A stretch of DNA of 25,600 nt, taken from assembly GCA_043760765.1 (NCBI GenBank), contig JAYUOR010000493.1:1-25600 (forward strand), in the 5' to 3' direction. Source of the stretch: Planctomycetota bacterium (GTDB taxonomy: Bacteria; Planctomycetota; UBA1135; GCA-002686595). A program made the translations under genes and the position numbers. Under the pieces are notes generated by a model. The model saw only the letters and a program-made list of their open reading frames with translations, was not told the DNA's origin and did not search any database. Below, piece after piece: positions 1,255 through 18,935 of the stretch (the stretch's first letter is position 1; each line of letters starts with the position of its first letter).

Positions 1255-4200
1255 ATGCGATCGCAACGTTCCTGCGTCCTCACGAAGTCCGTCCTTTCGC
1301 TGTTTCTTTGCGCCCCGGCATTGGCGCAACTGCCCAATGCCGCTGCCCCCGATTTCGCTCAGGCGCCGAGCGACACGATCTCGCTCGCGCTGCCTGAGAA
1401 CTTTGTCGCGAGCAGTCCCTTCCACCGCGTGCGCTTTGCGGCGAACGACGAACTCCTGCTCAAGCTGCTCGACGCCAAGGCGATCGTCTGGCAGTTGGAC
1501 TACAGCTCTTTCTTCTTCGCGTTGGTGGACGCGCGCCGGCTCGGTGGAGTCGCGAACTTCGGCGCGCTGGGCCTCGAACTAGTAGATGACGCGAGCCTGG
1601 TGAACTTGAACGGCTACTTGATCGACGGCGCGGACGGCGCCGGCACGGCACTGCGCCTCGCGTCGATTCCGCCGTTCCTTCGCGCTCCCGAGGGCCAACT
1701 GGGCTCCGACGAAATTCGTCTGCGCCTGGTGCAGTTCGCCGGCCCGATCCAGGATGCGTGGCTCGACGCCCTGCGCGCGAGCGGCTCGACGATCGTCAGC
1801 TACGTCGCCAACAACAGCTACGTCGTGCGCTGCGACGCGAGCGCACACCAGGCACTTGAGAATCTGCGCTCGCGCCCGTTCATCCTTTCCGTTTCGAACT
1901 ACGAACCGGCCTTCAAGCTGCGCCCAGAGCTGCGGCCGCCGTATCTGGGCGACGCGCAGTTCTATCCAGTCACCGTGCAGGTCATCGCCGACGGCGACGG
2001 AGCCGAATTTGCCGCGGGCCTTGGCCTGCGCGCGGTCGAAGTTCGCGCCGCGCCCAATGCGGTGCTCAATTACATCAACGTCGGCCTGGTGATGGACGGA
2101 GCCAACGTGCTCGACCTCGCCCGCGATCCGCACGTGTTCGCGATCGAGCCGCTCGACACGGCGCGCATGTTCGACGAACGGCAGGGCATGCTCCAGGCCG
2201 GCCAGCTCAACGTGGCCGGCACGGGCCCGGCCAGTGCGACCTATCTTTCCTGGCTTGGCTCGAAGGGCTTTCCCGGCGTGACGCCGTTTCCTTTCGTCGT
2301 CGACGTCCAGGACGACGGCATCGATCGCGGCAGCACGAGCGACATCAACGTCGAGTTCCGCGTCGGCGGGACCGCCGGAGGCGCGACTCGACTCGCCTAC
2401 AACAACAATTACTCCGGTGACGCGCTCGCCGATGGCGTTGCCGGCCACGGCAATATCAATGCCTCGATCGTCGGCGGCTACAACGATCTGACCGGCAGCG
2501 GGGCCGAGGACGCCGGCGCCTATCAGTACGGCTTGGGCATCGCTCCGTGGGTCCAGCTCGGCAACTCGAAGGTTTTCAACAACGCCGGCTCGGGCGTGTT
2601 CAACCAGCCGACGCTGACGCGCATGTCCAACGCCTACGGCGGCGGTGCGCGCATCTCGAGCAACTCCTGGGGCTACACCACGGGAACGACCTACAACTCA
2701 GACAGTCAGGCCCACGATACGGCCGTGCGCGACGCGCAGTCCGGGACGAGCGGGAATCAGGAACTGACGATCGTGTTCGCAGCAGGCAACAGCGGAAGTG
2801 GAGCTTCGACAGTTCACCCGCCGGGCACCGCCAAGAACGTGATCACGGTTGGCGCGTCGGAGAACGATCGTCAAACCGGGAGCGATGGCTGCGGGATCGC
2901 CAACACTGGCGCGGACAACGCCAACGACATCATCTCGTTTTCTTCGCGCGGCCCGACGTCGGACGCGCGCAAGAAACCCGAACTCGTCTCGGTGGGAACG
3001 CACGTTCAGGGCGCGGCGAGTCGCGCGACCGGCTACAACGGATCGGGCGTTTGCAACCAGTACTGGCCGAGCGGGCAGACGCTCTACGCCTGGTCCTCGG
3101 GCACCAGCCACTCGACGCCCGCGATCGCAGGGGCCTGCGCGCTGGTGCGCCAGTTCTTCGTCAACAACGGATCTTTGGCGCCCACTCCGGCGATGGAGAA
3201 GGCCTGGCTCGCGGGTACTTCGACCTACATGACGGGCGTGGGCGCGAACGACACGCTGTGGTCCAACAGTCAGGGCTTTGGACGCGCGAATCTCGGCGCG
3301 GCCTTCGACGGAGTTGCGCGCGTGAACGTAGACCAGACGCAGGTGCTCGGCGCAACCGGAGCCACGTTCGTTTCCGCGGGCAACATCGCCTCGGGCACGA
3401 GCGCGTTCCGCGTCGCTCTCGCCTGGACCGATTCGCCTGGACCGACGACGGGCAATGCCTATGTCAACGACCTCGACCTCGAGCTGACCGTGAACGGCAC
3501 GCTCTATCGGGGCAACGTGTTCAGCGGCGCGAATTCACTCGCCGGTGGCAGCGCGGATCCGCGCAACAATTTGGAATGCGTGTTCTTGCCCGCGGGCACG
3601 AGCGGTTCGTATTCCGTCACCGTGCGCGCGGCGAACATCGCCGGCGACGGCGTGCCCGGCAACGCGGACACGACCGATCAGGATTTCGCACTGGTGATTT
3701 ACAACGGCACGGCGGGAGCTCCGCCGCCGCCGGATTTTTCCGTCAGCGCTTCGCCGTCGTCGAACACGGTCGTGCAAGGCGCGGCCGCGAACTACACGGC
3801 CGGCAACACGGCGCTCAACGGCTTCACCGGTGACGTCACCTGGACGGCCACTCCGGCGATCACGGGCACGAGCTTCGGCTTCTCGCCCAATCCGGCCACG
3901 GCCGGCGCAGGCTCGACGTTTACGGCGAGCACCAGCGCTGCGACGCCGGTGGGGACGTACCTGATCACGCTGACTGGAACGAGCGGCGCGCTCGTGCACA
4001 GTACGGGCGTGACCCTGGTAGTCAACGCTCCGGGCGGCGGTGCCGGCTCGGTCAAGACCTACTCGCGCGCACCTGGGCTCGCGATTCCCGACAACAACGC
4101 GACCGGAGTCACGGACACGTTGAACGTCGCGGACAATCTCACGATCACGTCGCTCTCGGTGAGCACGGTGATTCCGCACACCTACAAGGGTGACCTGGTC

Positions 4201-4794
4201 GTCACGCTGATCGGACCCGACAACACCAGCGCGATCCTGCACAATCGCACGGGCGGCTCGACCGACAACGTGACCACGACGTTCGCGGTCGCGACCACGC
4301 CGAATCAGTCGATGTCGGTTTTCAACGGCAAGTCGAGCAGCGGTGCGTGGAAGCTCAAGGTCCAGGACCTGGCAGCCGCAGACCTAGGCACATTGTCTTC
4401 GTGGAAACTCACCTTCAACGGCGAGAAGTCCCAGACGGTCAATCTGGCGATCCCCGACAACAATACGACGGGCGTCACAAGTGCGATCAATTTCGTGGAC
4501 AGCGGACTCGTGGCGGCCGTGAAAGTGCGCGTGAGCATCACGCACACCTTCAAGGGCAACCTCGAAGTCTCGTTGATCGCACCCGATGGCACGACGGCGA
4601 TCCTGCACAATCGCACCGGCGGCTCCACCGACAACGTCAACACGGAATATCCCGACCTGACGGCTTCCGCGCAGTCGCTTGCGGTGTTCACAGGCAAGGC
4701 GATCAGCGGAAATTGGAGCGTGAAAGTTCGCGACCTCGCAGCCGCCGACACGGGTACGTTCGTGTCCTGGACACTGAGTTTCCAGGCGCAGTGA
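1255..4794 (+). CDS. Secreted S8 (subtilisin, KP-43-like) serine protease with an Ig-like domain and two C-terminal proprotein-convertase P domains
   Basis: AAGGAG RBS at 1243-1248; N-terminal signal peptide and long prodomain. Catalytic Asp (VQDDGID, codon 2311), His (GHGNIN, 2446), oxyanion Asn (FAAGNSG) and Ser (SGTSHSTP, 3106). KP-43-type beta domain (RVALAWTD...VNDLDL), PPPPDFS linker, then two P domains (IPDNN...HTYKGDL / HTFKGNL...WKLKVQD / WSVKVRD). Confidence 0.93.
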   Translation: MRSQRSCVLTKSVLSLFLCAPALAQLPNAAAPDFAQAPSDTISLALPENFVASSPFHRVRFAANDELLLKLLDAKAIVWQLDYSSFFFALVDARRLGGVANFGALGLELVDDASLVNLNGYLIDGADGAGTALRLASIPPFLRAPEGQLGSDEIRLRLVQFAGPIQDAWLDALRASGSTIVSYVANNSYVVRCDASAHQALENLRSRPFILSVSNYEPAFKLRPELRPPYLGDAQFYPVTVQVIADGDGAEFAAGLGLRAVEVRAAPNAVLNYINVGLVMDGANVLDLARDPHVFAIEPLDTARMFDERQGMLQAGQLNVAGTGPASATYLSWLGSKGFPGVTPFPFVVDVQDDGIDRGSTSDINVEFRVGGTAGGATRLAYNNNYSGDALADGVAGHGNINASIVGGYNDLTGSGAEDAGAYQYGLGIAPWVQLGNSKVFNNAGSGVFNQPTLTRMSNAYGGGARISSNSWGYTTGTTYNSDSQAHDTAVRDAQSGTSGNQELTIVFAAGNSGSGASTVHPPGTAKNVITVGASENDRQTGSDGCGIANTGADNANDIISFSSRGPTSDARKKPELVSVGTHVQGAASRATGYNGSGVCNQYWPSGQTLYAWSSGTSHSTPAIAGACALVRQFFVNNGSLAPTPAMEKAWLAGTSTYMTGVGANDTLWSNSQGFGRANLGAAFDGVARVNVDQTQVLGATGATFVSAGNIASGTSAFRVALAWTDSPGPTTGNAYVNDLDLELTVNGTLYRGNVFSGANSLAGGSADPRNNLECVFLPAGTSGSYSVTVRAANIAGDGVPGNADTTDQDFALVIYNGTAGAPPPPDFSVSASPSSNTVVQGAAANYTAGNTALNGFTGDVTWTATPAITGTSFGFSPNPATAGAGSTFTASTSAATPVGTYLITLTGTSGALVHSTGVTLVVNAPGGGAGSVKTYSRAPGLAIPDNNATGVTDTLNVADNLTITSLSVSTVIPHTYKGDLVVTLIGPDNTSAILHNRTGGSTDNVTTTFAVATTPNQSMSVFNGKSSSGAWKLKVQDLAAADLGTLSSWKLTFNGEKSQTVNLAIPDNNTTGVTSAINFVDSGLVAAVKVRVSITHTFKGNLEVSLIAPDGTTAILHNRTGGSTDNVNTEYPDLTASAQSLAVFTGKAISGNWSVKVRDLAAADTGTFVSWTLSFQAQ
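4231..4638 (+). repeat. Internal duplication: near-identical 42-nt segments (4231-4272 and 4597-4638) in the two P domains
   Basis: gcgatcctgcacaatcgcacgggcggctcgaccgacaacgtg vs gcgatcctgcacaatcgcaccggcggctccaccgacaacgtc. Three differences, all at third codon positions; both encode AILHNRTGGSTDNV. Confidence 0.85.
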
Positions 4795-4815
4795 CCCAGT
4801 CCGGATAGTTTCGAC

Positions 4816-4853
4816 GAAGGGGTCGCCCCATGCGGGCGGCCCCTTCTGCTTTG
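4816..4853 (+). terminator. Probable intrinsic terminator after the S8 protease gene
   Basis: 13-bp stem GAAGGGGTCGCCC / GGGCGGCCCCTTC (one G-U pair), 5-nt loop CATGC, followed by TGCTTTG; starts 22 nt after the stop codon. Confidence 0.7.
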
Positions 4854-4910
4854 CGAGGCCGACGCCGTTTCCACCGTGCGCGTGGATCGGTTACAACCGT
4901 CGTCCCAACC

Positions 4911-6323
<1,413 letters not shown>

Positions 6324-6329
6324 CGGCCC

Positions 6330-7022
6330 GTGTCCGAGGAGGACAAGAGCCAGCGCGCGTTTTTCTCCGCTTCGGGCAAGCCGCTGCTCGAGGTTCGCAG
6401 ACTCGCGCGCACGCCCTATCCGGTCGCGCACGATTTGCAGCAGGCACTCGTCGACCAACGCGTCGCCGGCCTGATCGGCGATCAACTGCTGCTGACCGAG
6501 CACGACCCGGTGATCACCGTGGGCCGCGGCGGCGAGCCCTTTCCTGCGACGCTTGGCGGCGTGCCGATCCTCACCGTCGAGCGCGGCGGCGACGCGACCT
6601 ACCACGGTCCCGGCCAACTCGTCGTCTACCCGATCGTGCTGCTCGGGCCGGAGCGGCGCGACCTGCATCGCTATCTGCGCAATCTCGAAGAGGTCGTGAT
6701 TCGCATGCTCGCTGAAGTCGGCGTAGCAGGGGCGCGCAAGCCCGGTCTGACCGGCGTCTGGGTAGGCGAGAAGAAGATCTGCTCGCTCGGCGTGGCCGTG
6801 CGCCGCTGGGTAGCTTGGCACGGATTCGCGCTCAATTTGCGCACGGAACTCGACGTTTTCAGGACTTTTCGGCCCTGCGGCCTCGATCCGGACGTGATGA
6901 CCCGCCTTGAGGACTACGTCGCGCTCGAGCCGGGCAACCTGCAGTTCGAGCGGCTGGCCGTACAACACTTTTGTCACGTGTTCGGCCACGAAGTGGCGGC
7001 TGCGACGGGGTCTGGGCGATAG
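6330..7022 (+). CDS. lipB: Lipoyl(octanoyl) transferase
   Basis: Motifs LLTEHDPVITVGR, VERGGDATYHGPGQLVVYPI, KKICSLGVAVRRWVAWHGFALN and PCGL; 6 nt downstream of lpdA. Confidence 0.95.
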   Translation: MSEEDKSQRAFFSASGKPLLEVRRLARTPYPVAHDLQQALVDQRVAGLIGDQLLLTEHDPVITVGRGGEPFPATLGGVPILTVERGGDATYHGPGQLVVYPIVLLGPERRDLHRYLRNLEEVVIRMLAEVGVAGARKPGLTGVWVGEKKICSLGVAVRRWVAWHGFALNLRTELDVFRTFRPCGLDPDVMTRLEDYVALEPGNLQFERLAVQHFCHVFGHEVAAATGSGR

Positions 7023-9554: not shown

Positions 9555-10607
9555 TCACCTGACTCCGTACACGTCGCGGCCCTTTTCGTGCGTCACACGC
9601 GCCCAGGCGAAGCCGATTCCGCCGTAGACATAGTAGAGCAGGTGCAGCGCCACGCCCGCCGGCAGGAACAGCGCTCCGCGAAGGCGTGCGAGCAGCGCGT
9701 AGAAACCGCGGTTGATCCACAGGATCGGCGCGAGGAGTGCGAGCGGAGCGCAGAGCCAGACCCAGCCGTAGCCCAGCCCGCCGGCCACGCTCGAAAGCGG
9801 CAGGCTGCAGAGCGCCAGGAAGACGAGCACCACGCACAATTTCTGCGCCCGCGCGAGATTCAGATCGCCGCCCGTGCCCGGCCGTTCGAGCAGCAGATGC
9901 GTCCACGGAATCGCGCGGCAGGTGAGATCGACGCGCACCATTTCAGCGAGGCGCCAGCGTTTCAAATGCTTGACCTGGATCCACGGCGCGAGCCGGATCC
10001 TGTGTCCCGCCGCGCGCAAGCGCATGCCGAGTTCGATGTCTTCGATCGAAGGCCGCTGGAAGCGCTCGTCGTATCCGCCGATGCCCTGAAACACTTTGCG
10101 ACGCAGGGCGCCGCAGCCCGCCCAAAAGGTCGTTGCGTCGCGCGGACCGGTCTGATGGACGTAGTGGTGCAGGAGATTTCGATAGCTGCTGAGCGTTCCG
10201 GTCGCGTCGGGCGCATCGTCGTAGGAACCAAAGCACGCGTCGACCGAGGGCTCGTCGACGAAGACCTTGGCGAGCGCTGCGACTGTCGTCGGCGTCACGA
10301 CCACGTCGGAATCGATGAAGACAATCAGCTCGCCATTGGCCTTGCGCGCGCCCGCATTGCGGGCGATGGCCGGACCGCCATTTTGTTCCAGGCGCAGGTA
10401 ACCGGCGCCGGCGCGCTGCATCACGGCGATCGCGGCGGGGTCCGTGCTGGCGTCGTCGACGACGATCAGCTCGAACTTCACGCTCGAGCGGTTCAGCGCG
10501 TCGAGGCAACGACTCAAGTAGGCCGCGGCATTGAACGCCGGCACGATCACGCTGATCGTCGGCGTTTCTTTCGACCCGGACAGGTCCGTGTGGGGGGAGG
10601 TGGTCAA
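9555..10607 (-). CDS. Family 2 glycosyltransferase with C-terminal membrane helices
   Basis: ISVIVPAFNAA, IVVDDASTD, NGGPAIARNAGA, DXD motif FIDSD, IEDIELG; hydrophobic C-terminal segments. GTG start is uncertain. Confidence 0.9.
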   Translation of the reverse strand: MTTSPHTDLSGSKETPTISVIVPAFNAAAYLSRCLDALNRSSVKFELIVVDDASTDPAAIAVMQRAGAGYLRLEQNGGPAIARNAGARKANGELIVFIDSDVVVTPTTVAALAKVFVDEPSVDACFGSYDDAPDATGTLSSYRNLLHHYVHQTGPRDATTFWAGCGALRRKVFQGIGGYDERFQRPSIEDIELGMRLRAAGHRIRLAPWIQVKHLKRWRLAEMVRVDLTCRAIPWTHLLLERPGTGGDLNLARAQKLCVVLVFLALCSLPLSSVAGGLGYGWVWLCAPLALLAPILWINRGFYALLARLRGALFLPAGVALHLLYYVYGGIGFAWARVTHEKGRDVYGVR

Positions 10608-10749
10608 TCGCTTGGGAAAGGTTTGCGGGCTATTGCCGGAACGGCCTGCCCGACGATACGAGCAGAGTTGCAGATCGGCCGCCTGCCGCGCAGTCTAAAG
10701 TGACGCAGGCCGCCAACTCAGCGAGCACCCCCCCCCAGAATCCCGTTCC

Positions 10750-12126
10750 ATGCAAAGTCCCCTGGCCTTCCTGTTCGCGCCGTTGCTCGTCTGCGCGGCG
10801 CTCTTCCAAGCTCAGAGCCCCGACGCGCCCAAGCCGGTGCGCGAGCGCAACTGGGAGGAGATCCTGGGACGTAGTCAGGCGCAGTTGCCCAGTCCGCGGC
10901 CGGCGACCCGCTGGTTCGACAAGTTGGACGAGGCCAAGGCCGTTGCGGCGCGCGAAGGCCGGCCCCTGTTCGTGGTCATGCGTTGCCTGCCTTGCAAGCA
11001 GTGCGCCGATTTCGACGCTGCGGTGCTCGAGGGTGGTCCGACGCTCGCCCCCTTGCTGCGTCAGTTCGTCTGTGTGCGACTGACCAGCGTGCAATCCGTC
11101 GATCTGAACCAGTTTCCGATGCAGACGATGCAGGACATGGACTTGTCGTGGTGGGGCTGGTTCCTCTCGCCCGAGGGCAGCATTTACGGCGTTTTCGGCG
11201 GGAAGGACGAGCATGGCGACAGTTCGCGCATTTCGCCGCCAGCGTTGGCCGCGACACTCAGGCGAGTGCTCGAGCATCACTTCGACCCGCGGCGCGCGGA
11301 TTGGGACGTCGACGTGAAACCGGCGCGCGGCGAGAAGGCCCGGACAGCGTTCGATCTGCCCGGGTTCGCAGCTTGGGGCCGGCGTTTCGCGGACCTGAAT
11401 GAGATCGGGTGTCTTCACTGCCATCAGGTTGCGGAGATTTTGCGCCAACCGGCAATCGATGCGAAGACTTTCGACAAGCAGCGCGACCTGCAGCTGTGGC
11501 CGTACCCAGAGAACATCGGCATCGAAGTCCTGCGCGACGACGGACTGCTGATTACGCAAGTGATCGAAGGCAGTCCTGCCGCCAAGGCCGGGCTTGCGCC
11601 CGGCGATCGCCTCGCTGCCGCGGGTGCGAAGAAGCTCTTCAGCCAAGCGGACCTGCGCGTCGCGCTGCAGCGCATGGAGGCCGAAGGGGGAGCGCTGCAG
11701 TTGCGCTGGAAGCGCGAGCGGCAATTGATGGAAGCGACACTTGAACTGCAACCCGGCTGGAAGCGCGTCGTGCTCGATTGGCGTCAATCGGTCGCCGACG
11801 GGAACATCGGCGCGCACCCTGGATTCGCCTGGCCTAACGAGGTTACGGCCGGGAACAAGCCGGGCATGGGGATCTTGCGGGACTCGATGGCGGTCAGACC
11901 CTACTTCGGCAACAAAAAGGAAGCTTGGGTCGCGCGCAAGGCGGGCCTGACTGACTCCGACGTGATCCTCGCCGTCAACGGGCAATCGCCCAACCTCTCC
12001 GGGCGTGCATTCCTGGTCTGGTTTCGCGGCTTGCTCGAACCGGGCGACGAGGTGGTGCTGCGTGTGCGCGCTGCGAAGGGCGGCGAGCGCGAGGTGAAGT
12101 ACAAGGCGACGGCGCGCGGGCGTTGA
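10750..12126 (+). CDS. Secreted thioredoxin-like (Trx7)/PDZ domain protein with CxxCxxC and CxxCH motifs
   Basis: Signal peptide MQSPLAFLFAPLLVCAALFQA; thioredoxin-like WFDKLDEAKAVAAREGRPLFVVMRCLPCKQC; CLHCH at 11410-11424; two PDZ-like segments (VIEGSPAAKAGLAPGDRL; ARKAGLTDSDVILAVNG). Confidence 0.82.
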   Translation: MQSPLAFLFAPLLVCAALFQAQSPDAPKPVRERNWEEILGRSQAQLPSPRPATRWFDKLDEAKAVAAREGRPLFVVMRCLPCKQCADFDAAVLEGGPTLAPLLRQFVCVRLTSVQSVDLNQFPMQTMQDMDLSWWGWFLSPEGSIYGVFGGKDEHGDSSRISPPALAATLRRVLEHHFDPRRADWDVDVKPARGEKARTAFDLPGFAAWGRRFADLNEIGCLHCHQVAEILRQPAIDAKTFDKQRDLQLWPYPENIGIEVLRDDGLLITQVIEGSPAAKAGLAPGDRLAAAGAKKLFSQADLRVALQRMEAEGGALQLRWKRERQLMEATLELQPGWKRVVLDWRQSVADGNIGAHPGFAWPNEVTAGNKPGMGILRDSMAVRPYFGNKKEAWVARKAGLTDSDVILAVNGQSPNLSGRAFLVWFRGLLEPGDEVVLRVRAAKGGEREVKYKATARGR

Positions 12127-14113: not shown

Positions 14114-14230
14114 CTTCTGCAGGCACTGGGTAGGAGCGGGCTGGCGCCCGGCATGGTCGCGGGCGCTAGAATGCGCTACTCGCGGGTGCTCATCCGGCCG
14201 CGCTCGAACGAACCTGGGACTCGCGTCGGC

Positions 14231-16105
14231 ATGTTTTCACTGCTCCACACACTCGCGCTCCTGATCCAGATCGCCGCAGGCCACGCGGCGCCGGTCCAGA
14301 TTCCTCAGGATCCGCCGCTTTCGGCGATCCCAGGCGAGCATTCGACGCCGCGCGATCCGTTGATGGCCTCCAAGTACGATTTGCGCGACGCAGCCCGCGA
14401 CGCACCCTGGGCTACGGAGGTGGCCAACGAACAGGTCGGCCCGCAGTTGTCCGCGCTCGCGAACCTGATCGAGGAATCCGTTCACGACAGGACTCCAATC
14501 GCTGTCGCCGAACTGACCGCCATCGCTGGTCAAAGCATCGCCCGCGCGATGCTGCGTCCAGCGGACAGGGCACTCGCATTCGAGAGTTCGGCCGGCAGCG
14601 TCTGGCGCACGCCCGCAAGCGGCGCCGCCGAAGTTTCTTCCAGCGTGGGCTTGGAGGCGCTTTCCGCCGCGCTCGCGGAAATGAGCGCTCCGTTCGAGCC
14701 CGGCAGCAAGCTGCACGCGAAGTTCAAAGTGATCGACGTGCGCATCTCCTCAGAAGAGAGCTCGGGAGTCGAGGCCTCGAAGGCTGCTGTCTCGATCGAG
14801 ACCGTCGCCTACCTGATGATCGACGGCCAAAGCGCGGACTGCGAATTGCAGCAAAATGCGACTTGGCGTTGTCGCTGGCGTCGCGAGGCCGCTTCGACGA
14901 AGCCGCTGCTCGAATCGATCGCCGTAGAAGCCTTCGAGGAGTGTCGCGGGGCGGCGGGGCGCGGCACGCTGTTCAAGGATTGCACGCAGTCCGCGCTCGG
15001 CGCGACGGAGGCCTGGAAGAAGCAGCTGACCAAGAGCCTCGATCAATGGGCGGGGGAGCTCGACGCCTCGTTCGGCGGAGCGATCGTCGGCCACGAGGGC
15101 ATCGCGCTCGGCGACGTCGATGGCGACGGCCTCGACGATCTGTTCGTTTGTCAATCGGGCGGCTTGCCCGACCGGCTCTTCCGGCACTTGCCCGATGGAA
15201 CGCTCGAGGATGTTTCGCATGCCTTCGGCGTGGACTTTCTCGATCAGACCCGCAGTGCGCTGATCCTCGATCTTGACAACGACGGCGATCAGGACATCGT
15301 CGCGGCCGTCGATCCGTGGCTCGTGTTCCTCGAGAATCGCGGCGATTCCAAGGATCCCAAGCAAACGCGTTTCGCGGGCGTCGCGCGCGTGCCGGGCGTC
15401 TCGGTGACCTCGCTCGCGGCCGCCGACGTCGATCGCGACGGCGATCTCGATCTGTACGCCTGTGGCTACATGCTGCCGGATCGTCTCGAGACGACGCCGG
15501 TGCCCTATCACGACGCCAACAACGGCCGACCGAACATCCTCTATCGCAACGACGGCAAATTTGCCTTCGTCGACGCCACGCGCGAAATGGGACTCGATCA
15601 GAACAATCGCCGCTTCAGTTTCGCGGCCGGTTTCGAGGACTACGACGACGACGGCGATCAGGATCTTTGCGTGGCCAACGACTTCGGCCGCAAGAATCTG
15701 TATCGCAACGACGCAGGAATCTTCCACGACGCCGCGGCCGAAGCCGGCGTCGAAGACATCGGCGCGGGCATGGGCGTCAGTTGGGCAGACTTCGACGGCG
15801 ACGGGCGCATGGACCTGTACCTGAGCAACATGTTCAGCTCGGCCGGCGAGCGCGTCACCTCGCAGCGCAATTTCAGGCCTGATCTGGACGATGCGACGCG
15901 CGCCAGTTTCCAGCGCCACGCGCGCGGCAATTCGCTGTTCAGGAATCTCGGCGACGGCACGTTCCGCGATGTCTCGATCGAGAGCGGAACGACCATGGGC
16001 CGCTGGGCCTGGGGCGCGAAGTTCGTCGACTTCGACAACGACGGTCGGCCCGACATCGTCGTGCCCAACGGTTTTGTCACCGGCGAAGATCCCGCCGACT
16101 TGTGA
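14231..16105 (+). CDS. FG-GAP/VCBS repeat protein (N-terminal part; conventional split annotation)
   Basis: Repeated DxDGDGxxDL motifs (GDVDGDGLDDL, DLDNDGDQDI, ADVDRDGDLDL, EDYDDDGDQDL, ADFDGDGRMDL, VDFDNDGRPDI), most followed by L(Y/F)RNxGxGxFxD segments. The ORF track starts it at 14153. Confidence 0.9.
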   Translation: MFSLLHTLALLIQIAAGHAAPVQIPQDPPLSAIPGEHSTPRDPLMASKYDLRDAARDAPWATEVANEQVGPQLSALANLIEESVHDRTPIAVAELTAIAGQSIARAMLRPADRALAFESSAGSVWRTPASGAAEVSSSVGLEALSAALAEMSAPFEPGSKLHAKFKVIDVRISSEESSGVEASKAAVSIETVAYLMIDGQSADCELQQNATWRCRWRREAASTKPLLESIAVEAFEECRGAAGRGTLFKDCTQSALGATEAWKKQLTKSLDQWAGELDASFGGAIVGHEGIALGDVDGDGLDDLFVCQSGGLPDRLFRHLPDGTLEDVSHAFGVDFLDQTRSALILDLDNDGDQDIVAAVDPWLVFLENRGDSKDPKQTRFAGVARVPGVSVTSLAAADVDRDGDLDLYACGYMLPDRLETTPVPYHDANNGRPNILYRNDGKFAFVDATREMGLDQNNRRFSFAAGFEDYDDDGDQDLCVANDFGRKNLYRNDAGIFHDAAAEAGVEDIGAGMGVSWADFDGDGRMDLYLSNMFSSAGERVTSQRNFRPDLDDATRASFQRHARGNSLFRNLGDGTFRDVSIESGTTMGRWAWGAKFVDFDNDGRPDIVVPNGFVTGEDPADL

Positions 16106-17785
16106 AGTTTCTTTTGGCGACAGGTCGTGTCGCAATCACCACTCGAGCAAGACACCGACGCCGCGAGTCCGCAGCGCGCAAGCTATGAAGCCGGCTGGGT
16201 CGCGATCCACCGCATGATCCGCGAAGGCGGCTCGTGGAGCGGCCGCGAGCGCGACATCGCTTTCCTGAACACGGGCGACGGCGCCTTCGCGCAAGTTTCC
16301 GCCGTCACGGGTCTGGCCTTCCCCGACGACGGCCGCGCCGTGGCGAGCGTCGATTGGGATTTCGACGGCGACACGGATCTGTGGCTCGCGAATCGCACGG
16401 CTCCGCGCCTGCGCTTGATGATCAACGATTCGCCCAATGGCAGCCAAGCGAACGGATTCATCGGCCTGCGCCTGCAAGGCAAACTGCAACGCGACGCGAT
16501 CGGCGCGCGCGTCGAAATCAAACTTGGCGGCGAGCGGCCGCGCACGCTAGTGCAGACGCTGCGCGCCGGCGAAGGCTATCTCTCGCAGTCGAGCAAGCTC
16601 CTGAGCTTCGGTCTGGGCGATGCGCGCGCGATTGAAGCCCTGAGCGTGCGCTGGCCCGACGGCACGCGCGAGGAATTTGTAGGCGCGAGTCCGCGTGCCT
16701 GGTTCACCTTGGTCGAAGGCAGCGGCCGCGCAGTGCCGTGGGTCGTTCCCGCTCAGGCTTCGAAGCTCGCGCCCAAGCCGCCCGAACTTCCCGTGCCGAC
16801 CTCTGTCGCCACGATTCCGCTCGCCGCGCGAGTTCCCATTCCCAACCTCGCATTCAGCGACTTGAAGGGTGCGTCCCTGACGCTCGAGAATCCGCTCGCG
16901 CCTTATGTGATGTTGCTCTGGGCGAGTTGGTGCGCACCCTGCATCGCAGAATTGCGCGAGTTCTCGGCCGCAGCAAAGCAGCTCGAATCGAGCGGCGTAA
17001 AAGTGGTCGCAGTTTGCCTCGACGCGCCCGCGGATCGTCCCAAGGCGGCGGCGCTGCTGGCCAACATGAGTTGGCCTCACGTGTCGTTGTTCGCCGACAG
17101 TGAGGCCGTCGACGCGCTGGATGTGCTGCAGCAATCGCTGCTCGAGCGGCGCCGCAAGCTGGGCTTGCCCTCGAGTTTCCTGGTTGACGCGCAGGGTCTG
17201 CTGGCCGTGATGCAGCGCGGGCCCAGCTCTCCCGCGCGGCTATGCCAGCAGGTCGCGACGCTCGCCGGAAGTCCGCTCGAGCTGCGCGATCGTGCCGTAC
17301 CCTTCGAAGGCCGTTGGATCGGCGATCCGCCGCTGGCGCCTTACGGCATTCTGGAATCACGTTTCCGCGAGCGCGGCTTGACGCGGATCGCGGACGAATA
17401 TCAGCGCCTGACCTGGAAGCGCATCGAATCCAGTCCGGCGCAGTTGCGCTACAAGATCGGGATCGCCCGCGAACAGGCGGGCAGCGCTGATCTCGCGCGC
17501 GCCGAATTCGCGCAGGCCGTCCTCTTGGAACCGGAGTTCGTCGAAGCACGTATGGCGCTCGCCTACATGCTCCAGCAAGCCGGCGATCATGCAGGCGCCG
17601 TCGAGGCCTATTCCATCGCCCTGCGCAGAGCCCCCAAGCACCAGATCGCGCTGCAGAATCTGATCGTCTCCCTGGTGGCGCTGAACAAACGCGACCTGGC
17701 CCTCGAACGCCTTGAGCAACTTCGCAGCGTCAACGCAACCGCTGCCGTGCAACTTGACCTTCGGCTGAAGATCTCGAAGCACTGA
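14231..17785 (+). CDS. Putative selenoprotein: secreted FG-GAP propeller / ASPIC-UnbV (CRTAC1-like) / TlpA-redoxin / TPR protein with in-frame UGA at 16103-16105 (about 1184 aa, Sec at about residue 625)
   Basis: Likely start ATG 14231 (signal peptide MFSLLHTLALLIQIAAGHA). The frame continues without another stop across the TGA: ...NGFVTGEDPADL*SFFWRQVVSQSP... to TGA 17783-17785. The FG-GAP repeat period spans the TGA, and a SECIS-like hairpin lies 11 nt downstream. Confidence 0.78.
16106..17785 (+). CDS. FG-GAP + ASPIC/UnbV + TlpA-like redoxin + TPR protein (C-terminal part; conventional start GTG 16127)
   Basis: FLNTGDGAFAQVS...VDWDFDGDTDLWLAN repeat; ASPIC/UnbV domain (RDAIGARVEI...GEGYLSQSSKLLSFGLG...VRWPDG); LWASWCAPCIAEL (CxxC at 16931-16942); C-terminal TPRs (ARAEFAQAVLLEPEFVEARMALA; AYSIALRRAPKHQIALQNL). 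Confidence 0.9.
   Translation, partial: SFFWRQVVSQSPLEQDTDAASPQRASYEAGWVAIHRMIREGGSWSGRERDIAFLNTGDGAFAQVSAVTGLAFPDDGRAVASVDWDFDGDTDLWLANRTAPRLRLMINDSPNGSQANGFIGLRLQGKLQRDAIGARVEIKLGGERPRTLVQTLRAGEGYLSQSSKLLSFGLGDARAIEALSVRWPDGTREEFVGASPRAWFTLVEGSGRAVPWVVPAQASKLAPKPPELPVPTSVATIPLAARVPIPNLAFSDLKGASLTLENPLAPYVMLLWASWCAPCIAELREFSAAAKQLESSGVKVVAVCLDAPADRPKAAALLANMSWPHVSLFADSEAVDALDVLQQSLLERRRKLGLPSSFLVDAQGLLAVMQRGPSSPARLCQQVATLAGSPLELRDRAVPFEGRWIGDPPLAPYGILESRFRERGLTRIADEYQRLTWKRIESSPAQLRYKIGIAREQAGSADLARAEFAQAVLLEPEFVEARMALAYMLQQAGDHAGAVEAYSIALRRAPKHQIALQNLIVSLVALNKRDLALERLEQLRSVNATAAVQLDLRLKISKH
16117..16133 (+). promoter_or_regulatory. Candidate bacterial SECIS element
   Basis: GCGACA-GGTCG-TGTCGC: perfect 6-bp stem, 17 nt total, starting after an 11-nt spacer following the TGA, with a GGUC-containing loop. 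It extends via a bulged G16116 to T16114/T16115 pairing with A16135/A16134. Confidence 0.7.
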
Positions 17786-17789
17786 GCCC

Positions 17790-17818
17790 GCCCATACGGT
17801 GCCAGGCACCGTACGGGC
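17790..17818. terminator. Hairpin between convergent genes (possible bidirectional terminator)
   Basis: GCCC-A-TACGGTGC / loop CAG / GCACCGTA-C-GGGC: 8-bp perfect inner stem plus 4 bp outer stem; fills almost all of the 34-nt gap between the two stop codons. Confidence 0.5.
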
Positions 17819-17819
17819 G

Positions 17820-18935
17820 CTACTTGCGGGCGCCGCGACGCCGCCAGCCGATCGCGACGGCGATGACCACGCCGATGACGGCGGGGTAAAGCCAGATTCG
17901 TCGCCGGGCGCTCGGCTCGGGCTGCTTTTCTGTGGCTTGAGGCTTGTCGGCTTGTCTTTCCAGCGCGCGAACCGTGATCGCGATCGCCTCGCTTTCCAAG
18001 GTTCGATAGCAAGCTGGCGGGGTCGTGTCGAAGTACGAAAACGCGATCTGCGGCAGGCGCGTCGAGCGTTCACTGGTCGGAGCGAGGTCGTACTCGATCG
18101 TGCGCAGCGTGCGCGAGCGGTGCTCGACCGAACCGTGCACGCGCCAGCCCTCCACGGGATCGATTCGCGGCGCTTCGAAGGACTCGAGATTGCCGTCGCC
18201 TTCGATCGAGAGCGTGAGTTTCACGCTGGAATTCAAGTCGATTTCACGCGCATTCACTTCGCTGCGCAGCGTGAGCCGGCCCACCGCGCCAAAGAAACCC
18301 GCGGGGCGACCGCTCTCCGGCAGCGGCATGATCGTCACGCTGCGCGCGGCACTGCGCACGATCGCCTCGACCCGATCTTGCGCGCTGTTGTCCTGCAGCG
18401 CGCGCTCGCCAAAGCGTGTCGCATAGGCGAAGCGCAATCGCACTTGCGGGAAAACCAGCTCGCCCGGATTCGTGGCGAGCCAGCTGCGCTCGATCTCGAA
18501 CGAGCGCAGCCGGCGCCCATCGACTCGTGTGTCGTCGACCGCGCGCGCGCGGGTCAGGGTCGAGTTGAGCACGAAAGTCTTGCCCGCTTTCTGCGCGGGC
18601 TCCGACTCCTCCAGCAGCGTGGCGTTCGGCAATTGATCGAGCCACGGCACTTCGAGCTGCACCGGCACATCCATCGACGGCCGAAACAGCGCAATCAGAT
18701 TGCTCTTGAACAGCTCCTCGTCGAATGCGAAGCGCAGACTGACGTGAATCGGCTCGCCCACGAAGTAGTTCGCGCGCTCCGTGAGCAGCTCGACGGACGC
18801 CAATCCATCCGCGGTCACGTCCTTGGCCGCCTCGTCGGCGAACGGCTCCTGGCCGAGGTCCTGGGGGGTAGCGTGTGCCGTGCCAACCGCGGCGAGCAGG
18901 ACTAGCCCGGTGTGCCAGGTGAAAATGGGACTCAC
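17820..18935 (-). CDS. BatD-like (oxygen-tolerance) protein with C-terminal membrane anchor
   Basis: Probable start GTG 18935 with signal peptide (MSPIFTWHTGLVLLAAVGTAHA). Motifs YFVGEPIHV, VTIMPLPESGRPAGFFGAVGRLTL, VKLTLSIEGDGNL and LPQIAFSYFD are typical of BatD. Ends in a TM helix plus basic tail (IWLYPAVIGVVIAVAIGWRRRGARK). Confidence 0.75.
   Translation of the reverse strand: MSPIFTWHTGLVLLAAVGTAHATPQDLGQEPFADEAAKDVTADGLASVELLTERANYFVGEPIHVSLRFAFDEELFKSNLIALFRPSMDVPVQLEVPWLDQLPNATLLEESEPAQKAGKTFVLNSTLTRARAVDDTRVDGRRLRSFEIERSWLATNPGELVFPQVRLRFAYATRFGERALQDNSAQDRVEAIVRSAARSVTIMPLPESGRPAGFFGAVGRLTLRSEVNAREIDLNSSVKLTLSIEGDGNLESFEAPRIDPVEGWRVHGSVEHRSRTLRTIEYDLAPTSERSTRLPQIAFSYFDTTPPACYRTLESEAIAITVRALERQADKPQATEKQPEPSARRRIWLYPAVIGVVIAVAIGWRRRGARK

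Follow-up and report, generated by a model that had tools for sequence, protein, structure and literature searches.

A locus in the 25,600-nucleotide (nt) stretch of Planctomycetota DNA analyzed here (contig JAYUOR010000493.1, hereafter referred to as the window) raises the question of whether an in-frame TGA codon ends a gene or specifies selenocysteine (Sec). Two open reading frames (ORFs), 14153..16105 and 16127..17785, lie in the same frame, and the TGA at 16103-16105 is the sole stop between them. A first-pass annotation of this DNA had described this arrangement and proposed that the UGA is read as Sec; we confirmed that the two ORFs are separated by this stop only and obtained an identical translation of the junction (...GEDPADL-U-SFFWRQVV... 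when read through). The predicted selenoprotein gene extends over positions 14153..17785 of the + strand, with the TGA at 17783-17785 as its terminator. Its start codon is uncertain (ATG 14153, 14171 or 14231), the closest relative favoring 14231. The read-through protein is 1,210 residues long when counted from ATG 14153 and 1,184 residues long from ATG 14231, with Sec at residue 651 or 625, respectively, the latter in agreement with the position of about 625 first proposed. Apart from this TGA, the 1,210-codon frame contains no other disruption. Four sediment-metagenome runs, each assembled separately in Logan, reproduced the region 16028-16600 without differences; the window may itself derive from these samples, and the agreement excludes the assembly slip that the first-pass annotation had considered, but does not constitute independent biology. 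As argued below, the UGA at 16103-16105 is very probably read as Sec, and the locus then encodes one multidomain selenoprotein of about 1,200 residues, probably exported and belonging to a widespread bacterial family that annotation has split in two.

The TGA is conserved well beyond this genome. A six-frame search of 41 related genomes, with residues 400-900 as the query, yielded about 85 homologous frames in 30 genomes, and about 60 of these frames hold exactly one in-frame TGA, far more than chance would produce. The TGA occupied a single alignment column in 23 of 30 loci (26 genomes), within the motif NGF-x-T-(5-7 residues)-D-[LT]-U-S-x-[FYW]-W-R, and conservation continued on both sides of it, with identities to the window protein down to about 36% in this alignment. 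The other seven loci had Cys (L037), Glu, Asp, Gly (L046 and L047) or a gap (two loci) at this column. The same TGA was found in congeners (93-95% identity), in distant genera and in other phyla; a stop codon private to this genome, which had been named as an observation that would count against Sec, is not what was found. In an even sample of the phylum (301 genomes, 238 genera), the family is carried by 41 genomes (34 genera), and about 64 of the 74 matches contain one TGA. In the distant Gly-form relatives (L047, G031:C29:74178-75536, and its neighbors), there is also one TGA in the match, and the frames end at a TGA about 207 residues past the column, which may be either a second Sec site or the normal stop. 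A second TGA-containing match in the genome of the window (contig C380) was rejected, being an ordinary ASPIC paralogue that ends at a normal stop.

The UGA (16103..16105, + strand) is followed by an 11-nt spacer (16106..16116) and a 17-nt hairpin (16117..16133), in which the stem 16117-16122 pairs with 16128-16133 and encloses the loop GGUCG (16123-16127). The first-pass annotation had stated that bacterial Sec is encoded by a UGA together with a 3' hairpin, without naming one; such an element is present, and it is predicted to be the selenocysteine insertion sequence (SECIS) on the basis of pairing and covariation. Among 23 aligned homologues collected by protein search, none lacks any of the six stem pairs, and two of the pairs show compensatory changes (columns 24-34 as GU, AU, CG and UA; columns 26-32 as AU and GC). 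At column 28 the loop G does not vary, and the U after it hardly does. Shifting the 3' partners by one to three columns decreased pairing from 90% to 22-75% and removed almost all of the covariation. The hairpin is also the local minimum free energy structure (-9.3 kcal/mol). Eleven nucleotides is the spacing required for the minimal SECIS of fdhF, and the fdhF sequence of Escherichia coli K-12, which we read directly, has the same register: UGA, 11 nt, then a 17-nt element with a GGUC apex. The fdhF host protein, a molybdopterin enzyme, is unrelated to the protein studied here, and the predicted SECIS of the window differs from that of fdhF in its perfect 6-bp stem lacking a bulged U and in its 5-nt loop, for which other clades have the variants CGUGG or CGGAG. 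No Rfam model matched the hairpin. The codons around the UGA are also biased: the preceding Leu codon is UUG in 16 of 17 homologues, despite high GC content, and the following Ser is always encoded by AGY, never by UCN, which points to context constraints around the Sec codon.

An exact 31-nt string comprising the UGA, the spacer and the hairpin (three degenerate positions) was present in at least 120 contigs of a species-representative genome collection. The matches listed include Planctomycetota (Pirellulaceae, Planctomycetaceae, Bythopirellula and Phycisphaerae), Verrucomicrobiota (Roseibacillus, Akkermansiaceae and Rubritalea), Acidobacteriota (Bryobacterales and Thermoanaerobaculia) and one Dehalococcoidia metagenome-assembled genome (MAG). 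In a tree of 86 family members, Planctomycetota, Verrucomicrobiota and Acidobacteriota interleave with strong support; this branching, together with the identity of the 31-nt string across phyla, suggests repeated horizontal transfer. Relatedness to named MAGs puts the window in Planctomycetota. Many genomes contain three to nine paralogues. More than 4,500 uninterrupted homologues in a large protein database share the four-domain architecture, and two of the best of these, P0003 and P0005, are true Cys forms, with TGC at the column and translation under table 11. Together with L037, they show the TGA column alternating with Cys, the pattern that the first-pass annotation had expected of a Sec position. 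P0003 (Phycisphaerales MAG JADZBE010000032.1, L189:3001-7002; 65% identity) still has an intact 17-nt hairpin next to its TGC, suggesting a "fossil" of a recent change from Sec to Cys, and in P0005 (Polarisedimenticolia MAG, L190) the hairpin is broken or decayed.

Most of the Sec machinery was recovered from the genome of the window, a MAG of 864 contigs that is 82% complete. A tRNA-Sec was detected at 70.6 bits and assigned by ARAGORN to SeC (anticodon TCA), selB at 308 bits and selD at 294 bits; selD has an in-frame TGA of its own, by which SelD is predicted to be itself a selenoprotein in this genome. The tRNA-Sec (738-835) and selD (4448-5404) lie about 3.6 kb apart on the same (-) strand of contig C7. 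The presence of this machinery, one of the checks suggested by the first-pass annotation, was thus established for three components, whereas selA was not found. It is present in four of five congeners and in all 40 other family-carrying genomes of the phylum sample, as against 220 of the 301 genomes overall; related genomes are not independent, and this co-occurrence is a consistency check rather than a statistic. One congener (G003, 89% complete) had neither the Sec protein nor selA, and the trait may have been lost there or be missing through incompleteness. The genetic code itself appears to be standard, because TGA terminates five of the ten Pfam-supported or long ORFs of the window, the selenoprotein gene included, and the other nine contain no internal TGA; a reassignment of TGA was rejected on these grounds.

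The read-through protein contains, in order, an FG-GAP propeller, an UnbV/ASPIC domain, a TlpA/ResA-like domain with a CxxC motif, and TPR repeats. The FG-GAP β-propeller (15101..16420, + strand; Pfam FG-GAP_3, E 1.2e-40) comprises five FG-GAP_3 repeats according to Pfam, with motifs of the Dx[DN]xDG type and helical inserts between the blades. It is followed by the UnbV/ASPIC β-sandwich (residues 782-844, 16496..16684; PF07593, E 3.1e-16), which aligns to residues 377-485 of CRTAC1, and by the thioredoxin-fold domain (residues 895-1026, 16835..17230), which matches Pfam AhpC-TSA/Redoxin, NCBIfam TlpA (the best match for the redoxin part) and, in the PDB, TlpA (1jfu) and ResA. No NCBIfam model covers the Sec-bearing part. 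The active-site motif of this domain, C927-A-P-C930 within W-C-A-P-C (16931..16942), is followed by E933; C927 is present in 72 and C930 in 70 of 78 family members. The C-terminal TPR repeats (residues 1100-1162, 17450..17638; Pfam TPR_16) are found in many homologues, but not in all. At the N-terminus, a putative signal peptide (14231..14293) consists of a hydrophobic stretch with an A-x-A-like site at its end. The N-termini of homologues, judged by eye, are likewise signal-peptide-like, several with a lipobox, and a full-length alignment has Cys at the lipobox-like column in 35 of 78 family members. Such termini fit a protein located outside the cytoplasm and a reductant of the TlpA type.

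Residues 280-1060 were modeled by AlphaFold2 in a single chain, with 93 homologues as input; the mean predicted local distance difference test (pLDDT) score was 94.4 and the predicted template modeling (pTM) score 0.95. In this model, Sec (model residue 372) is the second residue of a helix (371-382) in a helical insert of the propeller, and the CxxC (model residues 648 and 651) occupies the N-terminal end of helix 649-660; the N-terminus of a helix is a classic setting for a reactive thiolate or selenolate. The top Foldseek match was the crystal structure of murine CRTAC1 (9etn_A; E 1.5e-26, TMt 0.70, 596 aligned columns); next came TlpA and ResA, which match the C-terminal domain. The window protein thus resembles CRTAC1 and bacterial ASPIC-UnbV proteins in having an FG-GAP propeller and an UnbV/ASPIC sandwich in one chain. 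CRTAC1, by contrast, has no Sec, no thioredoxin domain and no TPR domain, and the Sec-bearing helical insert has no alignment to it at the profile or sequence level. The ordinary bacterial ASPIC paralogues (about 600 residues) have a gap or Tyr at the Sec column. The C-terminal domain is similar in both sequence and fold to TlpA and ResA, which together with CcmG belong to the periplasmic thiol-disulfide reductases, and it shares with them the CxxC followed by a conserved Glu.

The residues that accompany Sec hint at its role. Across the full-length alignment of 78 sequences, no Cys columns are near-universal except those of Sec651, C927 and C930. Of 73 complete Sec forms, 70 retain the CxxC, and another two, the Roseibacillus MAG forms L087 and L168, have C-P-V-S (CxxS) in the thioredoxin-like domain, which may represent a monothiol variant of the relay proposed below. 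Uninterrupted homologues generally follow a different pattern. Among the 120 best of the more than 4,500 in the database, the Sec column is occupied by Asn in 41 forms, one of which keeps the CxxC, by Ser in 26 (CxxC kept in three), by Ala in 26 and Gly in 15 (none in either case), by Asp in two and Gln in one (again none), and by Cys and Glu in three forms each, with the CxxC kept in two and three of them, respectively. The maximum likelihood tree of the 86 members requires at least four changes of Sec status, and the CxxC is absent from three of the four non-Sec lineages and kept in the fourth, which consists of one long-branched Ser form. The Sec/Cys group differs from the N/S/A/G group at ten positions, among them C927 and E933, the latter of which we take to be the equivalent of Glu80 of ResA, the residue that tunes CxxC reactivity. 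The first-pass annotation had remarked that the Sec has no partner Cys and lies at a non-catalytic-looking site. The first remark is accurate locally, but a CxxC on the fused TlpA/ResA-like domain is kept along with Sec or Cys and mostly lost without them; the second is not borne out, because this co-retention makes the site look catalytic or redox-active.

The comparisons show that the UGA at 16103-16105 is recoded, very probably as Sec by SelB and tRNA-Sec, directed by the 17-nt fdhF-like SECIS located within the coding sequence, 11 nt downstream. The Sec at the start of a helix in the CRTAC1-like propeller insert would be the reactive center of a redox enzyme outside the cytoplasm. After turnover, the CxxC of the fused TlpA/ResA-like domain would regenerate it and would itself be supplied with electrons by the common periplasmic reducing pathway, and the TPR tail probably serves to bind a partner or substrate. 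Such a redox relay, deduced from sequence comparisons and the structural model, seems to us a little likelier to be right than wrong. Fusion enzymes with their own TlpA-like reductant exist, as in PilB of Neisseria (Trx-MsrA-MsrB), and the logic proposed to be shared with such proteins is that of a reductase domain fused to its client domain. Here, the client would be a β-propeller with a lone Sec, of which we found no description, and electron transfer between the domains is presumed.

Several observations weigh against Sec decoding or the proposed relay. Taken alone, the hairpin has no stability advantage over shuffled sequences (z -0.81), and the 81-nt fold around the UGA is no better in energy than its shuffles, so that the signal resides only in the short hairpin and its covariation. 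Conservation of the hairpin is partly confounded with that of the peptide W-R-Q-V-V-S that it encodes; where a clade has W-R-H-V-V-A-S, however, other bases maintain the helix. Constraint at synonymous sites is only modestly higher near the UGA (codon entropy 0.47, versus 0.59 elsewhere; six columns). That selA was not found in the 82% complete MAG, as already mentioned, belongs here as well. The coupling of Sec to the CxxC is not absolute, because three Glu forms and one Ser form keep the motif, and the events of joint loss are few, because the non-Sec forms largely constitute one clade. Finally, neighborhood clustering of 120 loci revealed no conserved partner gene and no hint of a substrate.

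The best-surviving alternative accepts Sec but assigns it a non-catalytic role, as a soft-metal or chalcogen ligand in, for example, a carrier or sensor of Cu, Hg or Se, to which the CxxC would add further ligands. Proteins of the TlpA type do work in the assembly of copper centers (PDB 4txo and 4txv are complexes of TlpA with ScoI and CoxB), and the Sec column is occupied by Glu or Asp in some relatives, with three Glu forms keeping the CxxC. The group-specific positions, however, include no His- or Met-rich or other metal motif, and thiol-disulfide chemistry typically involves both a position at a helix N-terminus and a Glu of the ResA type. We consider a ligand role improbable, though it deserves to be kept in mind.

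A second alternative is that the UGA mostly terminates, yielding a truncated propeller of about 650 residues, perhaps with a separate C-terminal protein from GTG 16127, and that the Sec form is minor or selenium-dependent. SelB-dependent recoding is inefficient and selenium-dependent, and gene callers do yield two ORFs. Termination would nevertheless cut within the propeller, which was modeled confidently only as one chain, and both the frame and the sequence past the TGA are conserved in more than 100 genes. Furthermore, the Cys orthologues are single uninterrupted genes, and Sec covaries with a motif 276 residues downstream. Predominant termination is accordingly judged very unlikely. Even less credit is given to readthrough in which a near-cognate or suppressor tRNA would place Trp, Cys or Arg at the UGA. 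The inserted residue cannot be distinguished from comparative data alone, but such a tRNA would leave unexplained the fdhF-type hairpin with its canonical 11-nt spacing and conserved loop G-U, the presence of tRNA-Sec, selB and selD here and of selA in 40 of the 40 other carrier genomes, and the fact that, among the sense-codon variants, only Cys and Glu keep the CxxC at a high rate; TGA is, moreover, a normal stop elsewhere in the window. A recent nonsense mutation in a pseudogene, or a sequencing or assembly error, conceivable for a fragmented MAG of 864 contigs, is refuted by the conservation of the TGA in congeners, distant genera and other phyla, and is further opposed by the identical per-run assemblies and the otherwise undisrupted 1,210 codons.

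Redox-related genes near the selenoprotein gene include one for a protein with Thioredoxin_7 and PDZ domains (10750-12126, +) and one for a pyridine-nucleotide disulfide oxidoreductase (4830-6323, +), the latter followed by a lipoyl ligase gene (6330-7022, +); no link of these genes to the selenoprotein and no conserved synteny were found. Positions 1255-4794 (+) encode a 1,179-residue subtilase (Peptidase_S8) with two C-terminal matches to the proprotein-convertase P-domain (Pfam). The long flanking ORFs 17799-18905 (+) and 9588-10703 (+) had no Pfam match, and may be spurious, in DNA of 65% GC, or novel genes.

The family has probably been glimpsed before. Kim et al. (2016, PLoS One, PMC4807772) included four ASPIC/UnbV-FG-GAP selenoprotein candidates as lines in their S9 Table only, with a SECIS reported for three of the four; the family was not discussed in that paper, which gave no alignment, distribution, structure or partner domain for it. 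Compared by table description only, these candidates have the same domain description as the protein studied here, come from the same phylum and were likewise called as two genes, and, like L046 and L047, their closest NCBI match has Gly at the column. Full-text literature searches for selenoprotein or selenocysteine together with FG-GAP, ASPIC, UnbV, VCBS or CRTAC1 returned nothing relevant beyond Kim et al. (2016). Neither a 2026 review nor the deep-Sep and BSepDB papers refer to the family in their main text, and it is absent from the deep-Sep supplements as well. The recoding mechanism is the ordinary bacterial one, operating in a selenoprotein family that is new or barely noticed and whose structural and cellular setting is unusual.

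Gene calling divides each of these genes in two, and the databases consequently contain truncated fragments, under names such as "VCBS repeat-containing protein", "FG-GAP-like repeat-containing protein" and "TPR repeat protein/peroxiredoxin". Counts of the selenoproteome are therefore too low for Planctomycetota, Verrucomicrobiota and Acidobacteriota, in which many genomes have several paralogues. Thioredoxin-fold and molybdopterin enzymes make up most of the bacterial selenoproteins known, and a propeller Sec, located outside the cytoplasm and provided with a built-in reductant domain, would extend the range of structures in which Sec is used. The CRTAC1 superfamily, which includes a human cartilage and neural protein, has to our knowledge no known chemistry in bacteria, and the Sec site would provide a testable handle on its function. 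The chances seem about even that this lone propeller Sec, recycled in cis by the fused TlpA-like CxxC, is the first enzyme-like center in the CRTAC1/ASPIC-UnbV superfamily and defines a new class of extracytoplasmic selenoenzymes. Such enzymes would be common among soil, sediment and ocean members of the Planctomycetota, Verrucomicrobiota and Acidobacteriota, and a large sister branch would have given up both Sec and the CxxC for a non-redox role. The Sec, Cys and N/S/A/G forms that occur naturally, in which the CxxC is correspondingly present or lost, constitute a ready comparison set for this family.

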